From: Elsinoe ampelina
Taxonomy: Eukaryota
Assembly: GCA_010093995.1 (NCBI GenBank)
Contig: ML992511.1
Span: forward strand, 850,155-914,154
Reading direction: 5' to 3'
Length of the DNA: 64,000 nucleotides
Positions 6,266 to 47,832 of the stretch are shown piece after piece. Made by a program: the position numbers and the translations under genes. Every line of letters begins with the position of its first letter. Position 1 is the first letter of the stretch. A model generated the notes under the pieces. That model made no database searches. It was given only the letters and a program-made list of their open reading frames with translations, and had not been told where the DNA came from.

Positions 6266-6480
6266 AGAGAGGAGAAGAGAGTAGAAGAGTAGTAGTATAG
6301 ATAGTAATTCGGTGTAAGTGTTACTTACAATAGATAAGCCTTAGATCTTAGTTTACTTACGAGAGAGGCATACTAGAATTATGCTTAGTTATAATTAGTT
6401 AGCCTAAACTAACACTTGTAGAACTATAAAGTTTAACACGCTAAACTTTATCTCCTCTTAGTTTTATTATATGCTTATTA

Positions 6481-7257
6481 TATAGCGATATAACTACATT
6501 ACAAATACAATTTGTAATAATGCTTTAGTTTATACTCTCTACTTATACTAACCTAAACGTAGGTGTCGGTGTCTCTAGTATAACCTTTTCTCTTCTCTCT
6601 ATCTAACCTTAATAATAGCTAGCTATCTATTATAGCGGATCCCCTACCTAGTATACTATAATTATCTATTACTATATATATAATAGCGACTCTAACATTT
6701 ACTCCTACCTTACTATTACTACTACTTCTAATAGTATTCTCTACACTAGCTATATTATATTTATAGAATTAACTACTACTAGTACCTAGTAGTTACGCCG
6801 GAGTAAATCTATTATAGTATACCTCTCTATCTTACCTACTACGCTGCTATAGGCTTAAGGGTATATAAGGAGACTCCGATACTTCTTTCTCTCTCTCTAC
6901 TACCGCTGCTCTCTATAGCTTCTTTTACACTAGCTACGTATTATTAGTAGGATTAGCTACTATCTCTACCTAGTAGCTATAACTAAGCGAATCTATCGCG
7001 GAGCATCTCCTAATCTTATAGATAGCGCTACTAGGGGTTCTAGCATACGTAAAGAGAGTAGAGGAGCTAGCATCTACTAGGAATTACTTGCCTTATAGTA
7101 TAAGAATATTAAGGGGAGAATTATAGAGGAATAACTAGTATAACAAAGGGGAAGAGATAGAGGTATATCGCGGGCAAAGATACGTCTACTACCTTCTACT
7201 AGATAGTAGCTTACTATAGAGAGTATCGTAGGTAGAGCTATATTAGTAGTATTCTCT
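6481..7257 (+). repeat. 777-bp direct repeat A, copy 1 (minus-strand Pro-rich ORF remnant)
   Basis: Co-linear with 13743-14519 (offset 7262 at both ends); differences are mostly transitions. Confidence 0.92.
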
Positions 7258-8079
7258 TTTATAATTACTTTTATAGCAAGGTTTTATTATTAGTAGCGCT
7301 TTATTATAACTTTCTTACGTTAGTAATATACTTCTTTCTATGTAGATTATATACCTATTACTTTAATCCTTCTTCTCTAACTAGTAAATAAAATCTCCTT
7401 ATCTAATATATATAAGTATACTATATATCTTTCTTTATTCCTTATTATTTGTCTTGTCTCTTATCTACTATAAAGACATTAAGGTTATCGCTTTATACGA
7501 TAATACTCTTTATTAAATAGTTTACTAGCTGTTTAAAGCATATATAACTTTATATATAGTACTAATATATAAGTGTTTAGTATAGTTAATTACTTTAATA
7601 CTAATTTTCTACAATAATTAGTACTTATAATATTCTCCGATAGCTATGTTTTATTTACTTACCTAATTTACGCCCTATAATATTTATTAGTAGTAAACTA
7701 ACTTATTTACTTTTAGTTCTAGTATCGACCTAATATTAGTAATTATTATATATTACTATTAGCACGTACGAAATATAGACTTAGTTAACCTAGTTTACTT
7801 TTAGGTCGAGGCCTAAACTAGATCTTAGTTATAAGTATACTACTTACTTTAGTATACTATCTTAAATATAAATTTTATTATATTTAAAAAGTTACTACCT
7901 ACTTTCCGTATAGCATTTTAATATTATACTAGGTAGTAGGTATTTATAATTGCTACTATTTACTCTATAGCGCTTAACTTACTACGCTTAGTTCCTAGCT
8001 ATATAATCTTAACCTCTCTAACCTTACCTACCTTATATAATACCTTTACTAGTAGATATTCTTACACTTATTAAATACA

Positions 8080-11000
8080 TATAATAGTACTATACTACTA
8101 AAGATAAAGAAGCTAAAGGTCGCTACTAAACCTATAGAAAAGATTCTACTTAATAACCTTATACTAGCTCTTATTAAGAATATGCTTTATAATAACAATG
8201 TTAGTAAGAAATCTATCTAATTCTTCTTTAATTAGGACAACTAGCAATACTCTATTACATTTATAAGAATAAAGGAAATAATCTTAAAAGTCTTTACAGA
8301 ATCTAATATTAAAATTAAGAAATAAGATAGAAGCGAGTTACGTAATTCTAAGGTGCTTAAAGTACGTCTTAAAATTAAAACTAGACTACTAAATAGCACA
8401 CTTAACAATTTCTAGCTCTTTGTTAACTAACTAGATCGGAAAGATCTAGACTAGTTTAAGGAGAACTTATAGACTATAGTTAATATTAATAAGATAAAAG
8501 CTATATAGCGATTATTCCGAAATACTATATAATTAATAAGGGCAAATCTCCTATTAGTTAAAAGGGAAAGAATAACGTTACTAGGCAAAGAAGGCACCTA
8601 GAGTCTATATCCTTTAGCTACCTTGTCTATATAGACACTAACGCTCTCCTAAGTAAGAATACTATCCTTAGAGAGATATACAACTCGTGTAAAGACAGGC
8701 AATAAGAGATTAGATTTATATATATAGCCTCGTTATAGAATGTTTAGCTTTAACTAGGGGCTAGCGTCTAATTATATCTAGATTAACATTAAATTCGCTA
8801 TAATCTAGATTATAGAGGTTATTAAAGTAGATACTATCCCGTATCTAACATTAAGAAAGAATATCCGCGTCTATGACTTAATAAAGCCTAGTACTAGCAA
8901 GGACAAGAATTGTTACATTAATTACTACATTAGTAAGCTTAGGTAGATCCTTAACATTAGAGGTAATTACCTCTAACTTTACTAGCTTAACGTATATAAC
9001 TCTATATAAGTCTTTACTATTAAAGACTCTTTTAATCTAGACGCCGCTATTACTAAGCATGTTATAACTCTTATCCCTAGTACCTATAAGATCTTTCTCT
9101 ATCTTACTCCTTCCGTAGCATCTATTAAAGATCTTCTTAACTTTATATAAAGTAAGTTTACCTCTTCCTTGTTTATCTATATATACTAACACTTATAGAT
9201 AACTCTTATTAATATTATAGTAGCTAGTAACTACTTCCTATAGCCGAGGCTACTATAGAAGAGAACTCGGAAGTGTTTCTTACTCCTAAGAAGCTTCGCT
9301 TTATAGATATTAATACTAATAAGAAGCGTAAAGAAGATTAGTAGAAAAAGAATATTATAATATAGAATGTTTAATACCTGTAATAGCAACTAAACCGCTA
9401 AAGGCAAGAGCGGTAATGCTACTATATTTTATTTACTATTATGTTATTTATAAAACTATTTAGTTCTTAACTAATAAAGTTTTATTTAGCTCGTTCTACT
9501 CCTAAGAGGCTATAGCTCCTATAAATCCTGCAATTTCTGTTATTATTATTGTAAGTAAACTTGCTCGATAGTCCTATAACTATAGCTAGATAGATTTTAA
9601 CTAACCTAGCGACTTAGTTTAAGGTATAGTTTTACTTTATATAGTTTTAGAAGAATATAGCTCCTTCTTCCCTACTAGAAGAACATAGCCTATTTAGACT
9701 ATAGTATATGCCGCTAAGGCGCTATCTATGTTCCTACTGCTTTAATAGCTTAAAGAATATTATATAAGCTACTATACACCTAAGGCTAGCTATCTATCTA
9801 GATAAATATAATCTCTCGAAGCTCTCTAATACCTCTCCTAAGTTCTACTTTGTTACTAGTAACTTTCTATAGCTCGCCTAGTACGCTATAATATATTAGA
9901 GTAAAGAGAGTAAGTCTAAGAAGATAATAACTTACTTCTACTAATATAAGATTAATATTAGTATTAAAAAAGTAATATGTTCTTAATATTATTAACAATA
10001 GAAATAAAGTAATACTACTATAGATATAATAGACTAGAGCGTTTAATAATAAGTAAAACAAGTTAGTAGGATAGAATCTTATCCCCTATTATAGTAGAAG
10101 TAATAGTATAAGTTTTAGTTCTATACCGAACTTAGAGTTAACTAAATTAAATAAGAATAGTATAGTGCTATAAAGGAGCGCGTAGGCGTTACTACTAACA
10201 TAGTTATTAGACTTTACTCTTATATACTAGCGAGGTTTATATATAGTATACTTAGAAGTTAATAAAGAATTTCCGCTAACTATTATTAGTTCTAGCTACT
10301 ACCTTCTAATAAATAGTAGAGATGCTTTAGGTTAGGTTACACCTCCTAACTAAGTACAAACTTAAGTTAGTTTAGTTAGTCTAAAACTAGAGATAAACTT
10401 ATTTTATATTAGGGCAAATAAGTTCTTTAAGGGAATACTATAACGCCTAGCTATCTTATACCTCTCCTCGTTAGGTAATTGCTACTTAGCATTAGTATAG
10501 CTCTACTAACTACATACGTAGGTTTAGTATTAAGCTTAACATTTAATATAAAGTCGATTATACTAAGAGAAAAGGATTAGATACCTACTACTTAATAAAG
10601 GTAGCTTTGATATAGTAGAGCTAGTCTCTATCTATAGGCGGTAAAGACATACCTATTACAAAGAATAAGAGAGGATAAACTAGACATAATTTGACTTAAT
10701 ATTACTATATAATATAATAAGAGGTAGCTCTTTACCTATACAAAGGTAATATAAGAATAGTTAAAGTCTATTATAGCCCCCTTTTCGTAAATATAATAGT
10801 TACTTCTCGTTTCTAGTTCGAAATCTTCGTATTAGTCCTTATATAGATAGCTAGACTTCTATTTATTCCTCTCGACATGTATCTTAACCTAATTATAAAA
10901 CATCTAGTAGCTACGCCTACTTTTATGTCTTATTAGGTTTAAGATATTTCTAACTAAAACTCTAAAGTTTTAATCGAGGATAGATATCTTATTTCTTTAG

Positions 11001-12000
11001 TAGCACTATATATATAAATTACTTTACGTATAGGGGAGTATACCTTAACTACAATTATAGAGATACTATATAGGAGAAAGTAGTATAGGATAATATCTAT
11101 ATTTAACAAGTAAAAGGAACCTAGAGGTAATTATGCTAGATGTTGTTACAAGCTTACTTTATTCGCTCTACTACCCTGCTAGTATAGGAAGAGTAATAAT
11201 ATTGACCGACATTGTAGTAGAGGCTATAGACACTTCTTAGACTTTATACTCTAAGCCGAAGTAGTAGACAAGTATATAGCTAGCACTATACCAGATTAGG
11301 AATATAAGGCCTTTATATTATTATCCCTAAGATTATAGAATAGAAAGCCCGTAGTTAGAAGACTAAGAGGTAGTAAGGGATTATTTATACGTATAACTCT
11401 ATAGCGCTAGTAGTAGCTATAGTAGTTAGTTCGACTTAGTTAGTCTAGTTTAGTTGTTACTAATAAGAGAGCTATATCTATAATAACTTAAGAGAATCCT
11501 AAATAGCTAAGCTATTAGGATTAGTAAGAGTAATAAAGTTGTCGTTATTAATTATAGAGAGAAGTCTATAGTAAGCTATATAGGCATTATTAAGGTAGCT
11601 ATATTAAAGTAAACTTACTTCGAGAAGGCTACGCTAGTTAGTTCGTAACTAGGAATAGTATATAGTTCTATAATAAGTAGAGTACTAGTACTTCTACCTT
11701 AATAGTGTAACTTTGCTTAATATAAAGTTAGTATATAGATCTAATTATTATAGTAGGCTTCCGATAGTGCCTTAGAGAATATAATATTCGCTAGCGTAGA
11801 TATAATAATAGCGTTTATGCTTAAGCTAACTATACTATTCTATTAGCTAAAGAAGTAAGTTAACTATAGCTATAATATACTAACGATAATATAGAAGGTT
11901 ATATAAGACAATATAGCAAAGCAGACGAACTAAAAGTATAGTTATTTAAACTAATAGAGGAGTAATAGTAAATTATTAATTTATCCTTATTAAGATTAGT
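8080..12000 (+). pseudogene. SNF2-like helicase paralogue 1 (diverged, RIP-degraded)
   Basis: Patchy nucleotide similarity to 15443-19420 at ~7.3-7.4 kb offset (e.g. GACTAGTTTAAG at ~8450 and ~15785; 11410-11560 vs 18841-18990). Motif-equivalent segments: LDK(E)YN(G)LSKL at ~9798, NKFF (DEF-) at 10417, N(D)SVTLLN(D) at ~11701. Confidence 0.55.
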
Positions 12001-12480
12001 TAAGGGAACGCCTACAATTTTCACCTAAAAAGCACTAGTTTTAGTTTAGCGAACTAATTAACTACCCCTAATAGATTAACTATAGGCATAAACGACTTAA
12101 CGTTATATAGCTAAGGCGTCTTTATATACTGCTATTACTATTTTTTTATAGAGGCTATTTATAACTAACTTATTACAATACTAGTAATAAGTTAAGACAC
12201 GAGATAGTAAGAGCTATAAATCGTTTACTAGCTAAAATCATTATACCTACGTAGTACTCTCTGTTTTATAATTACTATAAAAGCCTCTACTAAGGACAAT
12301 AGCGCGACAATAGCTAATTAAGTATAGCATTTAATATTGTCCTTAAGTAAGGGACGGCTAATAAACTCTATTACCTAGATATATTAGAGTAAACTCTATC
12401 TCGATGTGTCTAGTACTATAGTATAGATACAATTTTAGCTTTAGTCCGCCGACGCTATATAATAGCTTAGTTCTATTAGC

Positions 12481-12954
12481 TCTACTACGAATTATAGTAA
12501 ATAAGAACTAAACTAAGTAACGAGGTAGAAATAATAGTCTATAGCTAGTATAGAGTGTCCTTTCCCCTTTGCCTACTATATAGTATAGTATAGTAGATAA
12601 TCCTCTTAGTCTCTTTACTAACCTCGACTCTCGACCTCTAGCATATAGAACGGATAGTAATAGTAATAGTAGGCTCGATAGCAACGTATATAAGGAAGAG
12701 AAGGGCATAGATAAAGTTATAATAGAAGACATACACGAGAAAGAGTAAGTAATTACAGTAAGCATAACTAGTAGCACGTCTATAGGGTAGAGTACTAGGA
12801 GGTTATCCTTATCTAGTAGAGCTATATCTAATCGTACTACATTTAAGATAGTAACTAGTATACTAGCTAGTAGCGAGGAGTTAGTAATAGATATAGTTTA
12901 TTCTTAGTTTGCGTTAACTAATCTTATCTAGATCTCTCTAAGTCTATAATATAT
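12481..12954 (+). repeat. ~474-bp direct repeat B, copy 1 (acidic first exon shared with the Plavaka transposase)
   Basis: Co-linear with 19923-20396 (offset 7442); diverges from the transposase after 12954. Confidence 0.9.
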
Positions 12955-13320
12955 CCTTTGCCCCGAGCAATTAATAAGATATAGCTTAGCTAGGGACTCT
13001 TAGCTTAGCGCTCTAACGTTTAATAAAAGGTAAGCTACTAACTTAGATAGATAATTTTAATTCAAGTTAGGTCATTATAGTAGAAGCGCCTTCTAGTAGA
13101 ATATACTTACTAGCCCCTATACAATGTTCTAATAAATCTACTTCTACCTACGTAAGGGTACTAAAGATATATCTAAGTTACACACGTAAAGGCTATAGTA
13201 GTCTAACTAATAGCAAAACAGTGTTTACTAGTAGAAAGCTTACTCGGCTTAAATTTAGTAGTATAAATCGTCGCTTTACTCTATCTCTAGCATGTTATAT
13301 ATAGTAGTAGTAGAGGGCGG

Positions 13321-13616
13321 CTAGTAGGGGATAGCTAGTAGTTTATTATGTTAAACTAATAATTTCTTAGTTCTCTCTCTTAAAGTTTAAAGATAACCTA
13401 AAATTTCAACCTAACTATAGCTAGCAAGGGATAGCTAGTAGTTTATTGCATCGAACTAATAATTTCTTAGTTCTCTCTCTTAAAGTTTAAAGATAACCTA
13501 AAATTTTAACCTAACTATAGCTAGTAGAGGACAGCTAGTAGTTTATTACGTCGAACTAATAATTTCTTAGTTCTCTCTCTTAAAGTTTAAAGATGACCTA
13601 AAATTTCAACCTAACT
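13321..13616 (+). repeat. tandem repeat, 3 x 100 bp
   Basis: Units start at 13321, 13421 and 13521 (CTAG...GCTAGTAGTTTATT...TTCTCTCTCTTAAAGTTTAAAGAT...CCTAACTA). Confidence 0.97.
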
Positions 13617-13742
13617 AAATTAAGCACTTCTTAGAACTTAATTACGTAATGCTATTTAATTATGTTCTTCTCTAAAGTTAAGTATTATATGTTTAGAGAC
13701 TTATAATCTTTATAGTATTATAAACGTGTTATAAACTCTATT

Positions 13743-14519
13743 TATAGCGATATAACTACATTGTAGATACGATTTACTATAACGCCTTAGTTTACGCCCT
13801 CTACTTATACTAACCTAAATATAGGCGTTAGTGTCCCTAGTATAACCTTTTCTCTCCTCTCTATTTAACCTTAATAATAGCTAGCTATCTATTATAGCGG
13901 ATCTCCTGCCTAGTATACTATAATTATCTATTGCTATATATATAATAGTAACTCTAACATTTACTTCTACCTCGCTATTGCTACTACTTCTAATAGTATT
14001 CTCTATACCGGCTATATTATATTTGTAGAATTAACTACCGCTAGTACCTAGTAGTTATACCGGAGTAAATCTATTATAGTATACCTCTCTATCTTGCCTA
14101 CTACGCCGCTATAGGCTTAAGGATATATAAGGAGACTCTAATACCTCTTTCTCTCTCCCCGCTACTACTACTCTCTATAGCTTCCTTTACACTAGCTACG
14201 TATTATTAGTAGAACTAGCTACCGTCTTTATCTAGTAGCTATAACTAAGTAAATCTATTATAGAGTATCTCTTAATCTTATAGATAGCGCTACTAGAGGT
14301 TCTAGCATATATAAAGAGAATAGAGAAGCTAGTGTCTACTAGAGATTATCTGCCTTATAGTATAAGAATATTAAGGGGAGAATTATAGAGGAATAACTAG
14401 TATAACAAAGAGGAAGAGATAGAGGAATATCGTAGGTAAAGATATGTCTACTACCTCCTACTAGATAGTAGCTTACTATAGAGAGTATCGTAGGCAGAGC
14501 TATACTAGTAGTATTCTCT
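13743..14519 (+). repeat. 777-bp direct repeat A, copy 2
   Basis: Matches 6481-7257. Confidence 0.92.
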
Positions 14520-15442
14520 CTCGCTATTGCCTTCCTAGTAGAGCTAGGTAAGGAATAAAGCACATTTATAATTATATAGAATGTACTATTAACTACCTAT
14601 TCCGCGGAATGTATAGCCTTTACTCTACTCTACTACTTAATTCTATATATAGCAATTATAAAGTCTAGATAATTAGATAGTAGTATATTACTTTCTTTAT
14701 TCCTTTACTAGTATCTATAAGCTATACTATACGCTATATATACTATGCCCTTTATTCCGCTATAGGCTACTAACTACCTTCTATTTATGTTCTATTACTA
14801 TTATCCTTTATATATAAATACTAGTTTTGCTATTAAAATATTATTTAATTATTTTACATTAACTACTACTATATTCCCTCTATTTATTAGACTATTATTC
14901 CTTAAGATCTACCCTAAATACAATAATAGTATCCTTAGTACATATAGCATGTAAAATAAAAGGTAACTAAGTATATAGACTATAGTTACTCTTAGTTTAG
15001 TATCTAAACTAAGTAATCTACTATTATATATATACTATATCTAGTATACTACTACGTGCTTAGTTTAGGGCCTGACCTAAGTCGACTAAATTTAAGTTAC
15101 TTCTCTCCTTAATTGCTTTAGTTTACCTTTGTTTATACTCTCTTATATATAAATAAATAACTTATGTAGCTCTCTAGTATTTCTTTAACCTCTTTAACTT
15201 CTCTTTTAAGCGCTTTTTACTTAAATATCTCCTCTTTAGTTAAGTCTTAGTTAGGTATATATTATAAAGTATATAGACTTACTATATTAATAAATCCTCT
15301 TCTTAATTCTTCTAAACTTATAAATATATAACACCTTTATAGAATCTTTTCTTTAATATCTACTATACCTACTTAACCTATTTACTAGATATTATTCTAA
15401 GCTTTATTTATAGCATATACTAAGCTTATAGACGTACGTAAT

Positions 15443-36105: not shown

Positions 36106-36552
36106 TAAGACCTCTCCTCTATAATACTATAAGAATAAACTATAAGAAATAGGTAAGTATATTTTTACATAGACTAGACTATTAAATTTCCTTTCTATAG
36201 ACTTATTACAATACTAAAGTATAGTATAGTAACTATAGTTACCTTAAAGCCTAACTAAGGCGTAGTACTATAACGTAGTATAATACTAGGATTTAACTCT
36301 AGTGCTAATTCGGTATAGTACTATCGTAGTATAGTATAGCGCTATTATAGTATAGTACTATTCTTGCTTAACTATAGTATAGTACTAGTACTAGTATAGC
36401 TCGGCGTAGTACTAGTACTAGTGCTAATATAGTAGGGTACGGAGCTAGTACTGTTTAGTTTAGCACTAGGTGCCGACCTGCTAAGAATAGCTCTATACTA
36501 GCACTAGGGTCGGCCTTTAGCCGCTCTAACTCCGCTCTAATAGTTACACTAG

Positions 36553-37957
36553 AACTTTCGATAGTATACTAGTGTTTCTCGGTATCTAATACTTCTTATA
36601 CTACTTAGCTATTAAGTAATAGACAGGTTAAGAGTAGAAGAGTATCGTGCGCTAGATGCTTCTAATATTTATACTGCTACTTAAGGAGGTTAAGGCGCCT
36701 TAAGCTATTAAGTTTATACGCGCACTAGTTAACTTTATATTACTAGTAAACTATAAGACCTATAACGACGATATACTCTAGTATATTAACCTTACGCTCT
36801 TTAGAATAAACAAGTATAAAGAAACCTTCTAGGCCTATTATAGTAACAGGAAAGAAGAGAGCGACTTTAACTTTCTAAAATAGTACTTAATAACACATTT
36901 TTTAAAGGCTATCTATAATTTTAGAGTAGTTACTAGCCTCGATTCTAATTATTTAGAGCATAATTATATATACTTTATTAAGGACGCCTTTAAACTTACA
37001 AACAAGAAGGCTAGATAGAAAGACTAGGTTACTACTTATAATACTAAACTAGTAAATATGTTAGTAGTATTTAATAACCTCTCGAAGTTAGTTAGGCTAT
37101 CGGCTACTAAACTAATTAAGATCTAAAGTACGCTAGTTAGCGTAAGCGATATAGTAAATGTTACTTCTTAGTTTAGCTAGCCTAGTACTAAGGAGAGAGC
37201 TATATAGCGTATAGTAAGAGAACTAGAGGCGCTTATTAATATACTACCTAGGCTATTACTATAGTAAGTAATAGCAGTATTTATCCGCGAGGCTTATTAA
37301 GGTATAGCTAAGATAGGCTCTAACTTAAGAACTAAATACTCTAATTAGTTTAACGCTAAACTAGATCCCGATAGACTTAAACTAGATTCTTCCTAGGTAA
37401 GCGACCTCTACGTTAAGTTCTACTATTCTTTAAAGTGTAGGAAACTATCTAACTATAATCCTAATAATCCTAATATAGACAAATAAGACTTTATCTAGTA
37501 TATAACTAAATAGTAGAGGATATATAGCAATAAGAGACAAGACTAGCTCTAGGTATAAGAATAGACAACAAATAATAAAGGCACTAATAGAGTATTACCT
37601 AATAGCCTATAAGGTAAGTTACTAACTTATATTATATTTATAATAACTATAGAGGATAGCTTCTAGTCTAGTAGATCGAGCTAGCGTTAACGCCTATACT
37701 ACATAGGAGCGCTAGTAGATCTATATTAGCCTACTTAGCCGGATAGAGTAGCTAATTAAGAGCATAGTATAACACTAATTAAGTCTTAGATAAATCGACA
37801 CGCGCGAGTTAGACGGAATACTCTTACTAGTAGGTATATCTACTTTACCTCGTAAATCTACTATAGTATCTACGTTATACTAGTAGATAAAACAAAGCTA
37901 TATAGCTAGATATATATTAATAACATAGCTGACTTTAACATATATAATATACTATAG
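36553..37957 (+). pseudogene. Plavaka-family transposase, 3' part
   Basis: De-RIP: FDSIPVFPGI, WTGQEQKSIVRQML, RALVDFILLANYKTHNDDTL, FNFPKWHSMTHF, SEHNHIHFIKDAFKLTNKK, RQDWLWVQE, ending YINNMADFNMYN at ~37950. Confidence 0.88.
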
Positions 37958-38049
37958 AATAAGTTATAGAAGTCTAAATAGCTTTACCTAGCTAAGGCTT
38001 TAAAATAAGAGAGGTTAAGATCCCTAGGTATAGTTAGTAAGTATAGTAG

Positions 38050-38730
38050 GCATTAACGAAGCTAGAGTACTCCTTTTGTAGCTAGAATAATCGTCTCTTA
38101 CATTAATAGCCTAACGCTTAGGTATACTTAGGTTAACTACTAGACTATATTAGGTAGGCAAGTTATAATAATAACTTCCGTAGGTATTACCCTAACTAGT
38201 TAGTTTACACCTATATATTATTAAGTTAGTCTCTAAACTATATAGGGTTTATAGCCTAAGGTGCCTTATATAGTTTTTACGCTAAAGAGTTAGTCTATTC
38301 CTTTACTAATTATAATAGCTTAGGAAATTATAGTAAGGCATTATAGAAGTTAGTCTTTAAGATGCTTAAGACATACCCTAAGTATTTAGTAACAGCGGTA
38401 AAAGGCTTAGGTTAGTAAGTTATCTTTAGGTTAGTTTTACTAACGGAGTTAGTAGTCTAAGAGGAAAGTTTATTCTCTATAATAAGTTTACTAATAAGAC
38501 TCTAATATAGATAATAGCGCTTTACTCTATTTACTATTATATTATAGAGATCTACTCGATACTACTAGAGTAGTTACTAAGGACTTATTCCTTTCTATCT
38601 AATAGACAAGATCTATAATAATACTAGCTTAGAAGACCCGCTAGGGAATATTCTTATTAATCTCTATATATATACTATACACGGGAAATAAGTTAAGAAA
38701 GAAGCTACTCTTTAGTATAGCAAGTAGCCT
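38050..38730 (+). pseudogene. BTB/POZ-like ORF remnant, paralogue 1
   Basis: DKIYN(D)NTS(G)L(S)EDPLGNILIN(D)L at ~38606-38665 resembles the IYxxTxxxSPLRxLLVD end of Dothideomycete BTB proteins; nucleotide match to 47207-47285. Confidence 0.4.
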
Positions 38731-39634
38731 CTTCTTTGTCCTCTAAAGCCTCCTCTATATCTATATAAGTTATAAGTATTTCCTTGTAAGATTATTAGTG
38801 TATAATATATATATAATAAATCCTATCTATAAGATTATATACTAGATTATTCTATACGCGCTATTACTACAACTATTACTTAGTAGTAGTAATAGTAGAG
38901 TAGCGGGATATAGTAGAAAAAAGTGTTATTATATCTACCTTTAAGAGGGGAATACTCTCTTTCTCTTCTATATCTTTCTTCTCGCTCTCCGCTATAGTAA
39001 GGTATACTATAACTAAAGCTACTACTACTGCTCCCTCTATAACTACTATTACTTATATATAGCTATAACTACGAGTTATTACTAGAAGCTTAGTACGCGT
39101 CGGGGTGACCTTATCTTTAATATATAGTAATAAAGTACTATAATCTTAACCCGGACACTACTTCTATTACCTCTCCGACAACTACTATAACTAGCGCTAA
39201 GGGCTAGTAAGGCAAGAAGTATACTACCTCTACCTTCGCTAGTGTCTATAGCTATACTAGTATTAAGCTTAGTAAGGCAGAGGAGAAGAGTAAGAAGCAG
39301 AAGAAGCCTCTTATTATTACTAATTACCTCCTTACTAATAACCTTATAGATAGGTAGTTAGGGTAGATCTTAAACTTCCTAGAAAGAGTATTTACTTCTC
39401 TACTATAACTGCCTTTAAGCTATCGTTTAGACTACTATGTCCTTAGTACTATCTCTAGAGCTACTTAGATACTATACTAATATCCATTAGACCTTACTTT
39501 TCTAGGTAGTCTTTCATAGCTCTAGAATTATTCTTCTAGTAGGTATACTATTCCGTGTTAGTAGACAAGGGATTAGCTTAGCCTAAACTAAATGTCTATT
39601 ATATTTCCTATACCTATCTATATTAGTATTAATC

Positions 39635-40097
39635 TATTACGAACTAGTAGGACAGCTAAAGCGTAGGGATATTAGGACTAATTAAACTACTAAGGTTATT
39701 ACGTAACCTAGCCCGATGTTTACTTAGTTCTCTATCTTCTCTAGCGGCTCTACCCTAGAGACTATAGAGCACGTAGGTTACTAGCGGACGTGTACTCTAT
39801 ATTACTCCTAATTCTCGCTACGAAGTATATAAAGTACATAAAGTACATAGTAAAGAATATATATATATAGGAGTAGTTCTTACCTTATATAAGTACTATA
39901 GTTAACCTCGTCTAGATAGTAAACACTAGTATTACTAAGGCTAGCCTTTATAATACTATCTAATTGTACTTTATTATCTATAAGATATACCTTCTCTAAC
40001 TCTTACCTTAGTGCTATACTACTATAGAAGTAGAACTACCTTGTTCTTAGCTTAGCTTAGACTACTAGCATAGACTATATTTAGACAGTTCATAACA
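39635..40097 (+). repeat. gypsy copy 2, 5' LTR
   Basis: Reverse complement of the copy 1 LTRs; 463 bp. Confidence 0.95.
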
Positions 40098-42195
40098 TTT
40101 TAACTACCCTTACTATAGTATAGCACGCTATAAGGTTAATAAGTAACTCTTGCTCTAAGTTACTATTAGTATCTTTAATTGCTAGTAAGCTAGGAAAGCT
40201 TACTATTAATGACATGTCTACTACTAGTTTAACCTCGAGCGAACATAGAAGGTCTTTTAGTATAGAAGGATAGAGTAGACCTAAGTTAGAGGTAGAACTT
40301 TTCTATAGGGACTGCACTTACTTAAGGCGCTTCCTTATTTAACTTAAAGCCTTCTTTGCCCTAGAGGGAGATAAGTACGCTAACGACGTAGTAAAGGTCC
40401 TCTATACCGGAATATATCTTAAAGGCGCTACCTTCGAGTAGTTCGAGCCTTATATAAGTAGCTACCTAGATAGATAACTAGGCCTAGATACAAAGGCTAT
40501 CTTTAAGAGCTTTAGCATCTTCTAGGCAAAGATTAAGCAAGTCTTTAACGTATCTAATAAGAAACGTATCGCTATAACGAAGATCTAATAACTATAACAA
40601 CGTAGGTCTATAGCCTAGTACTATTCCTAGTTCTAATAACTTGTAATGTATCTAGACTAGGACAATAGTACTAAACACTTAGTATTCTATTAAGGACTAA
40701 GCGACTTAGTTAAAGACTAAATAATACTCGAGCTGCCCGACAGCCTTTAGGAACTAGTAGATACTACAATTGCTATTAATAATAGACTTTATAAATAACA
40801 CATAGAACGTTATAGAGAATATAAAGTAAATACTAAATATACGTATTTCTCCCGAAACTATAGAGACCCTATAGAACTTAATGCTATATGTAAAGGCTGC
40901 CTCTTATAGATATAAGGCTACGGCTATAGAGGAAAGTTCCTTAGTAGAAAAGAGAGAGAGAAGTATAGACGAGATAATCTATATTTTAAGTATAAAAGAC
41001 TTAGGTATTAGGCTAGGGACTACTAATAAGGGGCGCTAGCCGATAGATTATATATAATAGTTGCCGGGCTAGTAGAGAAAAAGGCTAATACTACTATAGA
41101 AGACCTAACGACCTTTAGCGTAGGTAAGAAAACATAGAAGGAGTCTATAATAACTTAAGAGGTAGTAGAATCCTCTCTAGATGTTATACTTAATATCTCT
41201 ATAACTAATAGTAAATAACAAAGCTAATATATAACGCTATTATAGATAGTATATTATAATAACTCTTGTTATATTTACTTATTAGACAAGTAGAGATCTA
41301 GTTAGTTCCTATATAAGCTATCTAAGCGTAGGCAACTAACGAAATAGCTAGACTAGGAACCTAACCTAGAAGAGCTCTCTATAATTAGTAGTAATAGTAA
41401 CTAACCTTAGAAGGTAGTTAGCGATAATTACTAATATACAATTATTGAGATAAAGTATTAGGACATAAGTGCTATACAATAATATAGTAGCCTTACCTTT
41501 AGCCCTTATAGCGTACTATAAGGAAAGGCATATTATATATTACTCTAGAAATGTACAAATCTAGATTGTAAATAGTACTATACTATCTACTTATATGACA
41601 TACTTAGAGAAGACACTATTAGTCTTAAATATACTATAGACTTCTCGGTAATCGAAATAGGTAGTACTATCCCCTATAGCTAAGTAAGAGAATATACTTA
41701 GTGTAGCTTTACTAACTATAACTATACTAGGGGTAGTAGCGACGAAGAGAAATATAACAAAGAATACACCGAATAACTATAATATAACAACACGGATAAG
41801 AACTTATCTAATAACAATAATAACAATAATAACGTACTACTACTAGGCAGACAACTTAAAGTATACCTTATAGGGATATAGAGGAATTATATAATAATAT
41901 ACACCTACTACTAGAATAGGACACTATAAGACAAATCTATATAACCTATTTTTGTCTTTAATACTAATGCCTAGCTACACCTAGAAGGAATAGTTATACT
42001 AATATAGGTATGTAACACTACTTAGTGTAACTAGTAGAGAATTATTAGACTTTATAGTTACTAAGGGACTTAGGCGCTAGAAGTTTACCTTACTATATTA
42101 AACAGCGATAAAACACAACTTACCTAATAGATATAGTACTAATAGTAGATACGTGTAGGAAGGGATTAGCTACTTATCTAAGGAGCTATAATAAC

Positions 42196-42233
42196 AAAAA
42201 ACTAGCTAGTTGTCGCCTAATAAGGCAAGACAA
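42196..42233 (+). promoter_or_regulatory. probable -1 ribosomal frameshift signal between gag and pol
   Basis: Slippery heptamer AAAAAAC followed by a hairpin TTGTC-GCC...GGC-AA-GACAA, just upstream of the protease; heptamer conserved in copy 1 (~30207-30213, minus). Confidence 0.6.
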
Positions 42234-45200
42234 TAACACTAGCTAAAGCCTTAATATAATAAAGATCTACATGTTAAACTACTTTATACTAGAAGTTAAA
42301 ATATAAAGGAGTAAGGTAAGAGTAATAATAGATTTAGGAGCTAACCGTAGCTACGTCTCTATAATAGTTACTAATTAGCTTAAACCTTATTAATACTAGA
42401 AGGAGTTACCTTACCTACTTACTATAGCGGATAGAACCCCTATAGGGAAGAATAGGAAAGTTACTTAGGAACTATAAAACGTTATAATTAAAATCGAAAC
42501 ACATATAGAAAAATAATTAATCGATATAGTAGATATATAGTATAATATAGTACTTAGCATAGACTAGCTTTAATAACACAATCTAGACGTAGACTAGATT
42601 AAAGAAACACTCGAATTTCCTAAGTATAATTATAGGATATAGGGAGTATAATTAGCTCCGTAGATACTAACTATAAGGACAGTATAGGTACGACTAATAG
42701 TTAGAGCTATTACTAGCGTAAGTAATTAAGCACTTCTACCGGAATATAAAGACTTTAAGGACTTATTTAAAGAAAGGAAAGGCATTATAGCCTTACTCTA
42801 ATATAAACTATAGAATTATAAAATACTCTTTAAAGAGGGTAAATCCCTAATATACTATTAAGGTCTTATACTACTATTGAAATAAGAGAAGAACGTTCTT
42901 AAGAACTATATCGATAAGTACTTACTTAAAGGATTTATATAACTATTAAAATTACCTATTATATACGGAGTGCTTTTTATACCTAAAAGGGATAGAATGT
43001 TATAAATATGTATTAATTACTAGAAACTTAATACACTTACTAGGAAGAATTACTATTCCCTACTAAGGATTAACGAACTTTAAGACTAACTACTTAGAGC
43101 TAAATAGTTTACCGTAATTAACATTAGAGACGCCTATTATTAAGTATAAATAAAGGAGAGTAAGGAGTAGAAGATAGCTTTTAGAACGTAATAGAGTCTA
43201 TATAAGTACCTCGTTATGCCCTTTAAGTTAACTAATACTCCTATAACCTTCTAAGAGTTAATTAATAATACTCTATAAGAATACCTTAATAACTTTATCT
43301 TAGTATATTTAGATAATATTATTATCTTCTTAAAGATATACAACAAACACGTAGGACATATTTATAAAGTGCTATAGAAACTAAAAGAAAAAGACCTACT
43401 AGTAAAGCTCTCTAAGTATAAGTTTTATAAATATAAGATACAATTTCTAAGCTATATTATATCTACTAACAGCATTAGACCCGACCTAAAAAAGATTAAG
43501 TTAGTAAATAACTAGCTAGAACCTACTATAGTTAGGGAGGTTTAAGCGCTACTAGGGTTCTTTAACTACTACTATAAGTTTATTAAAGAATTCTCTAAGG
43601 TAGCTATACTAATATTTAACCTTATAAAGAAAGAAACTAGATTTATCTTCGATAAGAAATATAGGTAGGCCTTTAAAGAACTAAAGCTTAGACTTATAAT
43701 AGTACCTATTCTAGCACTCTTCGACCTAGACTAATAAGCACTACTAGAAATAGATACCTCGGACTTTGTAATAGAAGTGTGTCTAGCGTAGAAGAACGCG
43801 GAAGAATAACGCTACCTAATTGTATATTACTTACGAAAAATGACTAGACCTAAACTTAACTACGATATATATAATAAGGAGTTACTTACAATTATAAAGG
43901 CATTCCGCAAATAGAGAGTATACCTAGAAGAAATAACCTTACCTATATAAGTCTATACCGACTATAAGAACCTATTATATTAGACAATAACTAAGGTTCT
44001 TAACAGATAATAGGTTTAATAGTTAGAAACACTTACAAGCTATAACTTTTAGATCTACTATGTTAAGGGATTAGAGAATAGTAGAGTAGATGCTCTTAGC
44101 TAATAACTAGATTACTTAAAGAACATAACAATAATAGAGGCCTCTATACTAAAGTAGTAAGATAGCGCTCTAGTCTATAAGCACCCGAAGGTAGAGTAGT
44201 TATATAGCCTTACTTAGGAGCTTACGTAAGAACAGAAGAAAGAAGTTATTTAAATACACTATAATAACCTAATAGTAGGGCATAGTAGGATTGATAAGAC
44301 TATTAAACTTATCACACGAAACTACCTATAGAAAGGACTCTAAAACGATATTAAGATATATATTACTATATATAATATATACTACAAGTCTAAGTACTTA
44401 CGACATAAGCTATATAGCCTATTATAACCCTTACTACTACTAGATAAACTATAGTAATTAGTTACAATAGACTTTATAGGACCTTTACTACTATTAGAAG
44501 AACCTCTTACAGGTATAAAGTATAATAGCATTCTAGTCCTAGTAGATAGATTTACAAAGTATTACTACTTTATACTATATAAGACAATAGTAACTACTAA
44601 GGATATAGCTTTTACCTTTCTCCGAATAATTATTTTATAACACGGAGTACTATAAGACCTAATAACTAATAGAGATAAGCTATTTACATTATAATTCTAG
44701 TAATTATTTATGGACCTACTAGGAGTTAAATATAAGCTATTAACCTCCTTTTATCTATAAACGGACAGATAAACTAAATAGGCAAATTAAGTACTAGAGT
44801 AGTACCTACGATACTACCTAAACTATAAGTAAGACTTATAAGCGATACTATTACTACTCGTAGAGCTTGCTATTAATAATAGAAAGTTAGTAAATAAAAT
44901 TTTACTATTCTACGTAAACTATAGAATATACCTAGATTTATACTATAACATACTCGGAATTAAGCTAATATCTAAGGACGCTAATATACTAGTAACTAAC
45001 ATTAAGAAACTATATAACTAGCTATACTACGATATAGTATTTATATTATAAAGAATAGCAGAATTTGCTAACTAGAAGAGAATTACGGGACTAATTCTAT
45101 AGGAGAGAGAGAAAGTTTACCTCCTTAGTAAAAATATTAAAACGAAATAACTAAGCAAGAAACTTAACTATACTAAACTAAGACCCTTTAAGATCCTAGA

Positions 45201-45569
45201 AAAGAAAAACAAGAACGTATATAAACTAGAACTACTAAGATATATAAGGATCTATCTAGTCTTTTATATATTACTACTAGAGAAAGCACTATAGAATACT
45301 ATACCCGGACCTATTAAACTAGATAAAGAAACATAGGAGCTACGGTATAAGATTAAAAGAGTTTTACGTTATAAACTTATAAAAGGAAAACGCTACTATC
45401 TTATTTACTAGAAGGGATATTAGTATAGCGAAGTAATATAGGAACTAGAGGAGTACCTTACCTCGTAAGTAATCCTAGATTACTAGATTAAGAACTTATC
45501 CTAAGTAAACTAACTAGACAGACCTAGTACTCTAAATACTAAATAAAAACGAGAATGCCTAAGGAAGAT

Positions 45570-46121
45570 TACTTAACTAATAGAAGTACCTTAATCGTTG
45601 CTAAGTAAGGAACTTTAATTAGAGTTAGGCATAAATAATTGCTAGTCCTATAGTAGAATAGGATCTACTAATAACAGTATTTCCTCCTACTCTAAGACTT
45701 AAATACGAGTCTCTTCTAGAGAGATTACTTTCTCCACCTTGTTCTTTAACTTTTATATCTCTTTACGTAGGTAAAGCTTATTACCTATAGCTCTTTAACA
45801 AGTCTCTTTTACCTTTTTATAAGCTTCTTTAGCTTCCTTTTTAGTAGTCTTAGCTATAACTAATTCCTTTCGCAAATAAATACGCTTAGACTAGAGACGC
45901 TACTATTTTAATTTTATTACTTAAATATTATAACTCGAGTAGTTACTTGTAACATACTAGCTATAAATACCTAACTAAATATAGACTTTATAGTCTAGCC
46001 CTTTCGACTTGTAACAAGAGTAAGCTTATAGTATGTTAGTTCTAAATAATTTAATAAACTTCGAGAGGTTCTTTTATATAGATATACTAGATTTACTATG
46101 CCTTTAACAACTAGAAGGCAT
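45570..46121 (-). pseudogene. antisense Cys-rich plus coiled-coil ORF of gypsy copy 2
   Basis: ATG retained at 46121 (minus), the exact equivalent of 26288; co-linear with copy 1. Confidence 0.7.
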
Positions 46122-46195
46122 GTTTAGTATATAGCGTATAAGGACAAGGAAAGATACTTACTTATTAGAATAACTTAATTAAGGGAGGAGAGTAA

Positions 46196-46658
46196 TATTA
46201 CAAACTAGTAGGGCAGCTAAAGCGTAGGGATATTAGGACTAATTAAACTACTAAGGTTATTACGTAACCTAGCTCGACATTTACCTAGTTCTCTATCTTC
46301 TCTAGCGGCTCTACCCTAGGGACTATAGAGCATATAGGTTACTAGCGGACGTGTACTCTATATTACTCCCGATTCTCGCTATAGAGTATATAGAGTATAT
46401 AGAGTACATAGTAAAGAATATATGTATATAGGAGTAGTCCTTACCTTATATAAGTACTATAGTTAACCTTGTCTAGATAGTAAACACTAGTATTGCTAAG
46501 GCTAGCCTTTATAATACTATCTAATTGTACTTTATTATCTATAAGATATACCTTCTCCGACTCTTACCTTAGTGCTATACTACTATAGAAGTAGAACTAC
46601 CTCGTTCTTAGCTTAGCTTAGACTACTAGCGTAGGCTATGTTTAGATAGTTCGTGACA
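46196..46658 (+). repeat. gypsy copy 2, 3' LTR
   Basis: Ends GTTCGTGACA, followed by TSD TAATC. Confidence 0.95.
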
Positions 46659-46789
46659 TAATCTTCTTAGAATAGGCTATAGCCTTGCTACTATAGCCAC
46701 TATTAACGTAGTGTATCTAGCTTCTATTATTATTCTCTTCTTACGTCACTAATAACTTCTAAGTACTAGAACAGGTCTATAGGTATTTA

Positions 46790-47295
46790 TACTTAATGTC
46801 GTAACTATACTTAGCTATAATAATTAAGTCCTTCTCGGGAAAAGCTTCCTTATATCTATAAGCCTAAGTTATAAATGCCCCTCTATAAGCTTATTTTATA
46901 TTATCGACAATACAGGCCGCTAGATAGTAAAACTCGTAGGCTATAGGGCAATAGAGGCGCTTTTCGTTAGTGTTAACTTTTATTACTAGCTATATAGTTA
47001 TACGAAAGTACTTATCTTTAGAGATATCTAATACCTTAATAGACAACTAAGTAGAGATAATAAAATAGAGTTAGAATAAGTATATGTTAGTTTAGAGTTT
47101 TATGTTGTAAGCTAGAGAACAAGGCGTATAATGTCTACTTTCCTATTATAGTAAAAGTACTTCTATACTAAGCTCTAATAATATAGAGTATATACTTCCC
47201 CTCTATCTAGCGGACAAGATCTATAATAATACTAGCTTAGAGGGCCCTCTCTAGAAGATGCTTGTTAATTTCTATATCTATTCTAGTTATAGTAA
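46790..47295 (+). pseudogene. BTB/POZ-like ORF remnant, paralogue 2
   Basis: De-RIP NFYHWLYS (~46975-46998) and LADKIYDNTGSEGPLRKMLVDF (~47207-47272). Confidence 0.45.
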
Positions 47296-47322
47296 GTAGA
47301 GTATTTGTCTAATCTAAGGCAC

Positions 47323-47394
47323 GTATAGTACGTTTAACTAAAATTAGGTAGGTATAGTGCGTTTAACTAAATTTAGGTAGGTGCGGTGCGTTTA
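47323..47394 (+). repeat. 29-bp tandem repeat (2.5 copies), possibly subterminal to the large element
   Basis: GTATAGT(A/G)CGTTTAACTAAA(A/T)TTAGGTAG at 47323 and 47352, partial copy at 47381; ~100 bp from the RIP boundary. Confidence 0.8.
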
Positions 47395-47832
47395 TAGCGA
47401 CCTAACGTAGTTGAACTTAGTTTAATGCGGAGAAACCTAATATTCTAACTCTCTATACTTAGAACTTTCGTAACGTAGATAATTATTGTCTTAATCTACT
47501 ACTATTAAGGAGTTCTTTTGATTCAGCTATCTTTTAGTATACCAGGTTAAGTATTTATGTAGTTATAATCCACCTCAGTTTAGTGGATCAGGCAGTAATC
47601 AATCCTGTTTCCTCCCCTACACAAGTCAACAACATGCCAAAGCCAAACGTGGGGTTTCTCGATCGCAGATCTGGAGGCGAAAGTCTATCTGAGAAGTCTA
47701 TCTTGGTCGACGACATTGTGCGTTTTTACGGACACGACTCCTTTCCTTTTTGCATTCAACTTGTCGATATTGCATCTTGCATTTTTATCTGTATATACCT
47801 CTGTTTAATTTCCCATACTAGACTTTGTTCCC

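Follow-up and report, generated by a model that had tools for sequence, protein, structure and literature searches.

The AT-rich part of the window, that is, of the whole 64,000-nt stretch of Elsinoe ampelina DNA analyzed, is a nest of transposons inactivated by RIP. It comprises a Plavaka transposase gene, a hAT element inserted in that gene, two Ty3/gypsy copies and a duplicated ~6.5 kb unit (Table 1), the second copy of which probably carries the remnant of an SNF2-family ATPase gene. At the core of the nest there may have been one SNF2-carrying Plavaka-type transposon, later altered by nested insertions and RIP, a reading that we regard as plausible and unproven, with a probability a little short of even.

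Table 1. Features of the window, in order of position, with the evidence for each.
Feature	Position	Strand	Evidence
AT-rich RIP-mutated repeat block	1..47500	none	GC profile, dinucleotide and transition statistics, stop-codon usage
U1, first copy of ~6.5 kb unit, more decayed	6467..12954	+	blastn, purine/pyrimidine-collapsed blast, sharp boundaries
100-nt x 3 tandem repeat in 774-nt U1-U2 spacer	13320..13617	none	TRF
U2, second copy of ~6.5 kb unit	13729..20396	+	as for U1
Probable SNF2-family ATPase gene remnant	17170..19240	+	RIP-aware profile alignment, motif strings, RIP-compatibility scans
SNF2 motif I	17170-17250	+	17.1 bits, RIP-aware profile alignment
SNF2 motif Ia	17374-17526	+	24.8 bits, frame as motif I
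SNF2 motif III	18208-18342	+	16.0 bits, frame as motif I
SNF2 motif V	19101-19157	+	20.8 bits, frame different from I/Ia/III
VI-like stretch	near 19200	+	by eye, frame of motif V
Plavaka transposase, N-terminal part	20591..21673	+	Pfam domain 20591-21526; frame runs to hAT insertion point
hAT element, inserted in Plavaka gene	21674..36551	-	inverted ends; Dimer_Tnp_hAT
Ty3/gypsy LTR retrotransposon copy 1, nested in hAT	25750..32775	-	target duplication (A/G)CTAA
Plavaka transposase, C-terminal part	36552..38000 (end approximate)	+	coding-like translation in frame of 36554
RIP-mutated DNA, place of first claimed BTB-like ORF	38001..39633	none	Pfam and PDB searches negative
Ty3/gypsy copy 2, inverted relative to copy 1	39634..46659	+	Pfam matches; target duplication TAATC
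RIP-mutated DNA, place of second claimed BTB-like ORF	46660..47480	none	no relevant Pfam family

RIP, already proposed in an earlier reading made from the sequence alone (the sequence-only reading), is borne out by several measures. The GC content is 0.26-0.37 in window positions 1-47.5 kb compared to 0.50-0.63 in 48-63 kb, the GC profile placing the RIP edge at ~47.5-47.6 kb, and none of the 13 ORFs of at least 150 aa in the window lies before 48019. A flanking gene encodes a product 100% identical to a protein of E. ampelina. Dinucleotide statistics revealed an excess of TpA in the block (0.200 vs. 0.032) and an approximately fivefold depletion of CpA and TpG; CpG and CpC contexts are also affected, while CpT is spared. 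Stop codons are nearly all TAA or TAG, with TGA almost absent, and transitions account for 519 of the 520 differences separating the two gypsy copies. The residue changes caused by RIP include H to Y and C to Y. The same reading took the uniformity of RIP to mean that the whole cassette had been multi-copy. RIP does extend across the stretch, but it is able to spread into adjacent DNA, and thus its uniformity is no proof that every part was multi-copy.

The insertions claimed within the block were also recovered. The hAT element lies at exactly 21674-36551, with terminal inverted repeats of ~28 nt (TAGTGTAACTATTAG(G/A)GCGG...) and a Pfam match to the dimerization domain Dimer_Tnp_hAT (22.8 bits vs. 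a cutoff of 21.4, ~24289-24516, - strand), and measures 7.85 kb without its gypsy guest. An 8-bp target duplication was looked for, and the sequences on the two sides, GTTTTAAC and GAACTTTC, do not form one. In the same DNA, a search reading through stops as X detected a histone H3 remnant, suggesting a hAT element with a histone H3-like gene. Ty3/gypsy elements are characterized by LTRs with TG..CA ends, gag and pol genes, and a 5-bp target duplication. The two copies are 93% identical and have LTRs of 464 nt, gag and pol, the order reverse transcriptase, RNase H and integrase, and 5-bp duplications; in copy 2 Pfam matched RVT_1, RT_RNaseH, Integrase_H2C2, SH3_Tf2-1 and gag.

Plavaka transposases feature a catalytic DDE triad together with C(2)C and H(3-4)H motifs. 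The claimed transposase matched PF18759 well above the curated cutoff (E 4.1e-22, 79.3 bits vs. 26.3) over nearly the whole profile (positions 5-321 of 325), in one frame without frameshift, and is the only copy of this domain in the window. Frame arithmetic showed that deleting the hAT element plus 8 bp puts the C-terminal part in frame with the N-terminal part, and in translation the coding-like run after the hAT element extends to ~38.0 kb, giving a gene of ~2.7 kb. The C-terminal part is outside any Pfam model; by eye, 36866-37012 ('FNFLK.YLITHF...KLTNKKA') matches what we take to be the Plavaka/KDZ C-terminal consensus.

Upstream of the transposase, 6.4-21.7 kb had been read as part of one continuous unit, but our comparison revealed instead a ~6.5 kb unit present twice in direct orientation, as the diverged copies U1 and U2, with sharp common start and end points. 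In blastn the left ends (6467-7257 vs. 13729-14519) are 89% and the right ends (12442-12954 vs. 19884-20396) 86% identical; overall, identity is 82-88% at the ends and 56-69% in the interior, and transversion-free identity 96-100% and 83-90%, respectively. This repetition is unlike a host single-copy gene. A blastp comparison aligned U2 18744-19352 with U1 11310-11921 (38.7% over 204 aa, E 1e-24), the latter being the homolog of the SNF2-like C-terminal region of U2. In the unit interiors no frame-specific protein conservation was found and codon periodicity of transversions was absent (209/231/204, p 0.38). The 5' block of the unit contains ~183-nt direct sub-repeats in both copies. The 100-nt repeats between the copies are 99-100% identical with transitions ignored, and the spacer (12955-13728) has no match in the sequence preceding U1 or in the 3' regions. 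U1 is plausibly a second, 3'-truncated copy of the element's 5' half, situated directly upstream. Further upstream, the ORFs at 1.9-6.3 kb had been suggested as additional members of the element, a suggestion that found no support in Pfam, which returned no family there on either strand.

Regarding the SNF2-like gene, the family is defined by SNF2_N (PF00176) and Helicase_C (PF00271). RIP-aware profile alignment placed motifs I, Ia, III and V colinearly on one strand of U2 (sum 78.7 bits), 1.4-3.4 kb upstream of the Plavaka domain and in the same orientation. Motif II, like motif VI, was recognized by eye only. We consider the remnant probably real and its SNF2 identity probable. Alternatively, the resemblance could be due to chance, U1 and U2 being a decayed helicase-free repeat and the Plavaka, hAT and gypsy genes alone being real, which we judge unlikely. 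Every standard homology search was indeed negative: the profile match to SNF2_N or Helicase_C that the sequence-only reading had looked toward did not appear, Pfam, run on the + strand from 14500 to 20601 with E as high as 10, returning no family, phmmer gave 0 hits against 1.84 billion proteins as well as against PDB sequences, and no positive score was obtained with a plain bacterial SNF2 HMM. Moreover, the X-read-through search was able to recover other remnants from this DNA (histone H3, hAT, Plavaka and gypsy), and thus a well-kept SNF2 gene should have shown. The single matches (17-25 bits) are comparable to the best decoy scores (19.9-23.1 bits), and the significance of the chain is marginal and varies with the threshold, the real score being reached by none of the 19 decoys at 15 bits, by 4 at 14 and by 6 at 16. 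Against a chance resemblance, when the matches in six frames of 48 kb are ranked, the first and second fall together here in colinear order, as in none of the 19 decoy profiles, a match tied for third rank is motif I directly upstream of them, and the order I, Ia, III, V is that of the family. In addition, a scan of six frames with the a-priori pattern LAD[DE]MGLGKT gave a single site that was RIP-compatible at 9 or more of the 10 positions. It lies at 17173 (+), the very place of motif I, while only 6 of 200 permuted patterns (3%) gave any such site. All departures of the 12 observed motif I residues from ILAHEMGLGKTL are C>T or G>A changes. On the side of chance, some of the motif patterns tested were written after inspection of the sequence. 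The claim of an SNF2 gene upstream of Plavaka in the same orientation therefore holds weakly, through RIP-aware comparison of motifs I, Ia, III and V, and is not matched by Pfam, phmmer or PDB searches. As to the plural 'helicases', two decayed unit copies would fit, but in U1 the motifs are absent at the positions homologous to those of U2, a point that also favors chance.

The 3' region was reported to encode two BTB-like ORFs. However, Pfam searches of both strands with E as high as 10 returned no BTB family for 36.5-39.6 or 46.66-47.7 kb, 38001-39633 matching no Pfam family at all on either strand at that threshold, and BTB chains were absent among the PDB phmmer matches of the three + frames of 37901-39634, which consisted of weak unrelated chains. 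With no BTB signal by any method, the proposal of ubiquitin-ligase adaptors as cargo is unsupported. What does occur here is a 90-nt repeat at 38588-38677 and, as claimed, a 29-nt tandem repeat at the RIP edge (2.5 copies, 47323-47394 by TRF). These results weigh on the original model in full, namely one 19-24 kb Plavaka transposon with SNF2 remodeler(s) and two BTB Cullin-3 adaptor genes. It agrees with the Plavaka gene and the excised insertions, both as claimed, with the probable SNF2 remnant and with RIP over the whole stretch, but it lacks its BTB genes, its argument from uniform RIP is weakened by the ability of RIP to spread, and its size is an overcount, since 6.4-21.7 kb holds two copies of one unit. 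We thus consider it very improbable.

A more serious alternative is that the SNF2-bearing unit is a separate repeat, either an unclassified element in itself or the product of segmental or tandem duplication within a repeat-rich island, and only by chance the neighbor of a small, ordinary, transposase-only Plavaka. U1/U2 similarity ends at 12954 and 20396, 195 nt short of the Plavaka domain, and U1 has no transposase after it; with one Plavaka domain in the window, the adjacency of SNF2 and transposase is seen once, not twice. Termini common to unit and transposase were not found, the nest is dense with unrelated hAT and gypsy elements abutting, and the ends of the unit are far more alike than its interior, as if they were conserved ends of its own. 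On the other hand, both copies begin with TAT.. and this start has no inverted-repeat partner anywhere in 1-48 kb, no target duplication was found flanking U1 or U2, and no mobility domain (transposase, reverse transcriptase or other) was detected on the + strand of either copy or the - strand of U1. Furthermore, the unit has the orientation of the transposase and directly abuts it, and a transposase starting after 20396 would have only ~65 codons before its Pfam domain, with no element end marked. A separate unit is thus possible, if somewhat doubtful.

The reading that we favor, a single SNF2-carrying Plavaka-type transposon, draws on the resumption of the Plavaka frame after the hAT element, the colinear SNF2 matches, the repetition of the unit, its sub-repeats and the 100-nt array just before U2; CACTA-type ends typically have subterminal repeats. 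The parts of the claimed multi-gene transposon thus stood (Plavaka, insertions and, probably, SNF2), but termini, inverted repeats and target duplications of the composite were looked for and not found and no second transposase copy accompanies the unit, so that we infer, rather than observe, that SNF2 gene and transposase belonged to one mobile unit. The core would be a large Plavaka-type DNA transposon (CMCT clade, DDE cut-and-paste) of ~12 kb without later insertions, spanning roughly 13.7-47.4 kb and comprising a 5' subterminal region with the ~183-nt repeats, a ~2.6 kb stretch, the SNF2-family ATPase gene, the Plavaka gene and a 3' region of ~2.4 kb ending near the 29-nt repeats. Later, the hAT element entered the transposase gene and a Ty3/gypsy element then entered the hAT element, the second gypsy copy was inserted into the 3' region, and RIP came last, destroying all reading frames. 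The live element may have been cut and pasted by its transposase, with the SNF2 motor possibly serving as an accessory protein acting on the element's chromatin or DNA, by analogy with TET/JBP and PAG genes. If both the SNF2-Plavaka association and the histone H3-like gene of the hAT element hold, transposons of this fungus would have repeatedly captured core chromatin machinery, perhaps resisting silencing before RIP killed them.

AT-rich repeat islands with RIP are known from Pezizomycotina. The block resembles them in that LTR and DNA transposons are nested in it, mutation is biased toward CpA>TpA, every ORF has been lost and GC changes sharply beside normal genes, and it does not differ from them in kind. 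As for the cargo, SNF2_N ranks third after PHD and Chromo among the chromatin families in 823 chromatin-transposon gene models (Grau-Bove et al., bioRxiv 10.1101/2021.11.30.470311), and thus an SNF2-transposon link has precedent. However, those models are fused genes across eukaryotes, with no Plavaka case named in the portion of the survey available to us, while here a separate SNF2 gene would lie upstream of Plavaka.

According to the available part of a recent account, PlavakaA and PlavakaB of Agaricomycotina belong to the CMCT clade together with EnSpm/CACTA, have TGT..ACA or CATCA..TGATG termini and target duplications of 2-3 bp, and in fungi include elements carrying TET/JBP (Kojima, 2025, PMC12730594). 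Our transposase shares with them PF18759 over nearly its whole length, and the TAT... start of the candidate element is the RIP product expected of the PlavakaA TGT. In contrast to the families described in that part, the host is a Dothideomycete, the candidate accessory gene is SNF2-like rather than TET/JBP, and neither such termini nor 2-3 bp duplications were found in this dead, RIP-altered copy. The sequence-only reading had supposed the architecture to be undescribed, but in general form it is known, since a giant multi-gene Plavaka with chromatin-related cargo has been published from the red alga Bostrychia; as far as the accessible text goes, it measures 17.4-19.1 kb and has tandem repeats and accessory genes PAG1-3, its cargo being an N6-adenine methylase plus SET protein and a ParB-like plus 2OG-oxygenase protein (bioRxiv 10.1101/2025.02.11.637652). 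The likeness lies in large size, multiple genes, chromatin- or DNA-modifying cargo and tandem repeats, whereas the algal element belongs to another kingdom, has no SNF2 ATPase in the cargo described there, and rests structurally on many copies as opposed to the one decayed locus here. We tentatively propose a Dothideomycete Plavaka lineage with its own SNF2 motor gene upstream of the transposase, which would correspond, in fungi, to the elements carrying TET/JBP and PAG genes.

Up to 47.5 kb, the window consists of DNA altered by repeat-induced point mutation (RIP). The GC content of this part is 0.26-0.37 against 0.50-0.63 in the next 15 kb, climbing at ~47.6 kb, and TpA forms 0.200 of its dinucleotides compared with 0.032 in the GC-rich part, with CpA, TpG, CpG and CpC, but not CpT, depleted. 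None of the 13 open reading frames (ORFs) of at least 150 aa was found in the AT-rich part, where TGA hardly occurs and TAA and TAG account for nearly all stops. The GC profile, the dinucleotide bias and the comparison of two gypsy copies, in which 519 of 520 differences are transitions, all agree with the RIP claimed in a sequence-only reading of this DNA. The gypsy pair and the dinucleotide depletion also show the RIP context: CpA is affected most strongly, CpG and CpC are affected as well, and CpT is spared, which is broader than the CpA preference of classical Neurospora RIP. Every result on the AT-rich part rests on this single locus. In the GC-rich flank, one ORF is identical to a RasGEF protein of Elsinoe ampelina, a Dothideomycete, and a 35/105-nt tandem repeat lies within the gene region. 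A second AT-rich block starts at ~63 kb, and the 15 kb gene island thus has RIP-mutated DNA on both sides.

Features located in the window (positions in nucleotides; paired positions are separated by a slash)
Feature	Position	Strand	Measure
Repeated unit, copy U1	6467-12954	+	
Repeated unit, copy U2	13729-20396	+	
U1/U2 match, 5' end	6467-7257 / 13729-14519		89% identity
U1/U2 match, interior	11306-11604 / 18739-19038		72% identity
U1/U2 match, 3' end	12442-12954 / 19884-20396		86% identity
Collapsed match, 5' part	6248-7873 / 13501-15154		1623 bits
Collapsed match, 3' part	9406-12994 / 16790-20436		1623 bits
~183-nt direct sub-repeats	6625-7057 (U1) / 13887-14319 (U2)		86.5% identity over 252 nt, transitions ignored
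100-nt x 3 tandem array	13320-13617		91% identity raw
Conserved 3' block	12510-12910 / 19950-20350	+	few stops
Candidate SNF2 remnant	~17170-19240	+	
SNF2 motif I match	17170-17250	+	17.1 bits, tied third
SNF2 motif Ia match	17374-17526	+	24.8 bits
SNF2 motif III match	18208-18342	+	16.0 bits
SNF2 motif V match	19101-19157	+	20.8 bits
Plavaka domain (PF18759)	~20591-21526	+	79.3 bits (cutoff 26.3), E 4.1e-22
hAT element	21674-36551		
hAT dimerisation domain	~24289-24516	-	above its cutoff
Gypsy copy 1	25750-32775		7026 nt
Histone H3-like sequence	35742-35942	+	40 bits
Plavaka/KDZ-like string	36866-37012		
~90-nt direct repeat	38588-38677 / 47196-47285		81% identity
Gypsy copy 2	39634-46659		inverted relative to copy 1
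29-nt tandem repeat	47323-47394		
35/105-nt tandem repeat	50414-50749		
RasGEF ORF	54658-56589	-	100% identity
Second AT-rich block	63001-64000		GC 0.29

Reading frames could not be located by stop-density or TGA-free-run scans, which are uninformative because TpG is depleted everywhere. As all frames are broken, stops were read as X and Pfam was scanned piecewise. The + strand was covered at 1-6482, 6400-13901, 13600-21701, 21500-25752, 32770-36602, 36400-39641, 40099-46199 and 46600-47801, with 14500-20601, 36552-39634 and 46660-47702 repeated at E up to 10; the - strand was covered at 1-6482, 6200-13701, 21500-25752 and 32770-36602, and at E up to 10 at 36552-39634 and 46660-47702. In this DNA the approach works: gypsy copy 2 yielded RVT_1 (E 9.5e-14), RT_RNaseH_2 (2.5e-17), RT_RNaseH, Integrase_H2C2, SH3_Tf2-1 and gag.

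The hAT and gypsy insertions proposed earlier were both recognized. The Ty3/gypsy copies, of which copy 1 is nested in the hAT element, are 93% identical (99.96% with transitions ignored). Their LTRs are 464 nt long, and each copy is bounded by a 5-bp target duplication, (A/G)CTAA for copy 1 and TAATC for copy 2. The hAT element carries its dimerisation domain and ends exactly in inverted repeats of ~28 nt, TAGTGTAACTATTAG(G/A)GCGG(G/A)GTTAG...; a clean 8-bp target duplication is absent from its flanks, GTTTTAAC and GAACTTTC, even allowing for transitions. Even with the nested gypsy copy subtracted it measures 7.85 kb, a large size. Inside it, ~600 nt from the right end and facing the opposite way to the hAT transposase, phmmer against PDB detects a RIP-mutated sequence resembling histone H3. 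The similarity spans H3 residues ~45-106, with loop 1 enlarged by a 5-residue insertion, and Pfam Histone scores 21.5 bits, under its cutoff. The element may therefore have carried a captured H3-variant gene. In addition, a ~90-nt direct repeat flanks gypsy copy 2, and its homology goes no further; the intervals 38.3-39.0 kb and 46.9-47.56 kb were accordingly no longer read as two 3' ends, their common piece being only ~90 nt.

The Plavaka transposase of the sequence-only reading was confirmed by Pfam, with PF18759 matched in a single frame over profile positions 5-321 of 325; by tblastn, this is the one copy of the domain in the whole window. A protein homology search with this region left none of 3352 candidates at E up to 1e-5, since a filter on 5-residue words fails with RIP-mutated queries. 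The frame resumes once the hAT element and 8 bp are removed, and a coding-looking run continues it to ~38.0 kb, so that the transposase gene appears to be ~2.7 kb long and split by the hAT insertion. The part beyond the hAT element falls outside any Pfam model; by eye it contains 'FNFLK.YLITHF...KLTNKKA', which we take to be a C-terminal motif of Plavaka/KDZ transposases. Much of the first interval read as BTB-like is the C-terminal half of the transposase. Pfam, run on both strands of 36.5-39.6 kb and 46.66-47.7 kb with E allowed up to 10, returned no BTB family and only chance-level entries (Ribosomal_L50, E 0.053; DUF166, 0.081; Dala_Dala_lig_C, 0.23). When 37901-39634 was translated in its three + frames and compared with PDB by phmmer, the hits were weak and to unrelated chains (best fibronectin, E 0.014). 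The PDB test has some power here, because the H3 remnant was detected at E 4.4e-9. The two BTB-like ORFs are therefore without support.

The stretch at 6.4-21.7 kb had been taken as one gene array. Self-comparison instead shows a ~6.5 kb unit present twice in direct orientation, as U1 and U2, each with sharp outer boundaries. After collapsing to purines and pyrimidines, the two long matches stand far above the noise ceiling of ~130 bits in a later, more sensitive collapsed search. Identity is 82-88% at the ends and 56-69% in the interior, or 96-100% and 83-90% when transitions are disregarded; since many transversions separate the copies, they are old or distinct family members rather than a fresh duplication. 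A perfect tandem duplication including the 774-nt spacer between U1 and U2 was dropped, as the spacer is not matched upstream of U1 (score 189, within controls of 165-209). The idea that the paired 791-nt blocks belong to an LTR element was likewise rejected, given that the inner boundary is not sharp and that RT is absent from U1 (both strands) and U2 (+ strand). The spacer contains the 100-nt tandem array, whose copies are 99-100% identical with transitions ignored, and RIP thus hit an array that already existed; one lone, weaker copy of the 100-nt unit may be present at about 6050-6135, on the upstream side of U1. Direct sub-repeats of ~183 nt were observed in the conserved 5' block of both copies. 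The conserved 3' block is acidic and serine-rich, '...DVYKEEEGIDEVIIEGIHEEE...SITSSTSIG...'; it had no family match and could form the end of an SNF2-like protein, be a small ORF in its own right or begin the transposase.

The SNF2-like helicase proposed upstream of the Plavaka gene was invisible to standard searches. On the + strand, Pfam returned no family in either unit, and raising the E limit to 10 for U2 did not change this; a phmmer search of 1.84 billion representative proteins with 16800-19499 gave no match at E up to 0.001; neither phmmer nor a two-row U1/U2 profile matched PDB sequences at E up to 10; and an ordinary HMM, built from 76 SNF2 cores out of 120 bacterial loci fetched by a motif VI DNA pattern, scored at best -4.9 bits in six frames. 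By eye, the translation contains strings resembling SNF2 motifs IV to VI, for example 'RAIKTSLNLNYFDTIILLD' set against the profile consensus 'kAGGtGLnLtaAdtVihlD'. RIP-aware scoring, in which the posterior of pre-RIP amino acids is computed per codon with context rates derived from this same locus, was applied to six frames of 1-48000. Its best two local matches were to motifs Ia and V, followed by motifs I and III, all on the + strand and in SNF2 family order.

Decoy maxima reached 19.9-23.1 bits, and single SNF2 matches fall within the decoy range; this and the negative standard searches speak for there being no SNF2 gene at all. Against it, when 19 decoys were scored (18 block-shuffled profiles and one reversed), none placed its top two matches together and in colinear order. 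The summed chain of 78.7 bits is weaker evidence, being equalled by 0/19 decoys at a 15-bit threshold, by 4/19 at 14 and by 6/19 at 16. Chaining at 11 bits was discarded as a statistic, as it built a noise chain in gypsy (92 bits) and three of eight decoys beat or equalled it. In an independent test, LAD[DE]MGLGKT, read off the bacterial HMM, was looked for in all six frames of the 47.5 kb: exactly one site, at 17173 (+), was at least 9/10 RIP-compatible, and among 200 permuted patterns 6 had one or more such sites. The string present in the DNA, 'IFIYKIEFRKTL', departs from 'ILAHEMGLGKTL' by C>T or G>A changes only, the 12-mer pattern for the motif I compatibility scan having been composed after the sequence was inspected. 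We consider the absence of an SNF2 gene unlikely, and a badly decayed member of the family is probably present. Its C-terminal region has a homologue in U1 (38.7% identity over 204 aa, E 1e-24), where the SNF2 motifs are not kept, and the gene probably belonged to the repeated unit. RIP-aware alignment can thus trace genes that standard profile searches miss in heavily RIP-mutated DNA.

It may be, and we propose this tentatively, that a Plavaka element of ~12 kb carrying SNF2 lies here together with a second copy that is truncated. In its favour, the transposase is next to the SNF2 remnant on the same strand, with 195 nt between the end of U2 and the Plavaka domain; the unit is repeated with sharp ends; and ~183-nt sub-repeats in both 5' blocks, the array just upstream of U2 and the 29-nt repeats near the far edge, the last already noted at the RIP edge in the sequence-only reading, point the same way. 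However, the unit's start has no inverted partner other than TA-rich chance matches, target duplications flanking U1 or U2 were not found, and U1/U2 similarity ends before the transposase, which is single in the window and does not follow U1. The spacer is without any match, and the U1/U2 interiors lack protein-level conservation (no frame was outstanding in frame-by-frame alignment) and codon periodicity of transversions. That the SNF2 unit and the transposase are mere neighbours is a somewhat less likely alternative. The original model, a single ~19-24 kb Plavaka transposon with SNF2-like helicase(s) and two BTB-like ORFs, is highly improbable; its observations were largely right and its interpretation half right.

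Taken as a whole, this is a RIP graveyard of the ordinary sort; what sets it apart, though unproven, is a probable SNF2-type accessory gene linked to a Plavaka transposase in an ascomycete. Transposons with their own chromatin or DNA-modifying enzymes illustrate the contest of mobile DNA with host silencing; TET/JBP genes in basidiomycete elements and the methylase, SET and oxygenase genes of red-algal Plavaka elements are the known cases. If true, an SNF2 motor as ascomycete Plavaka cargo would be an accessory function of a novel type, and Plavaka would be known from a wider range of hosts. As this copy is dead and badly decayed, it is only a guide to intact relatives and itself unfit for functional study. 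A literature search at the level of titles, abstracts and text passages returned no SNF2 gene within a Plavaka or EnSpm element. The text available of Muszewska et al. (2017; PMC5751038) describes DNA transposons as few in Dothideomycetes, and that of Grau-Bove et al. (10.1101/2021.11.30.470311) ranks SNF2_N third, after PHD and Chromo, among transposon-fused chromatin domains. In the portions available of Kojima (2025; PMC12730594), Plavaka is placed with EnSpm in the CMCT clade, its termini are TGT..ACA (2-bp duplication) or CATCA..TGATG (2-3 bp), and its families come from Agaricomycotina, some with TET/JBP genes. Multi-gene Plavaka elements have a precedent, which favours a single element here: as far as the accessible part of the Bostrychia preprint goes (10.1101/2025.02.11.637652), red-algal Plavaka elements of 17.4-19.1 kb have tandem repeats and three accessory genes, carrying methylase, SET and oxygenase genes. 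Finally, the 183-nt, 100-nt and 29-nt repeats of the present locus resemble the subterminal repeats of CACTA-type elements.
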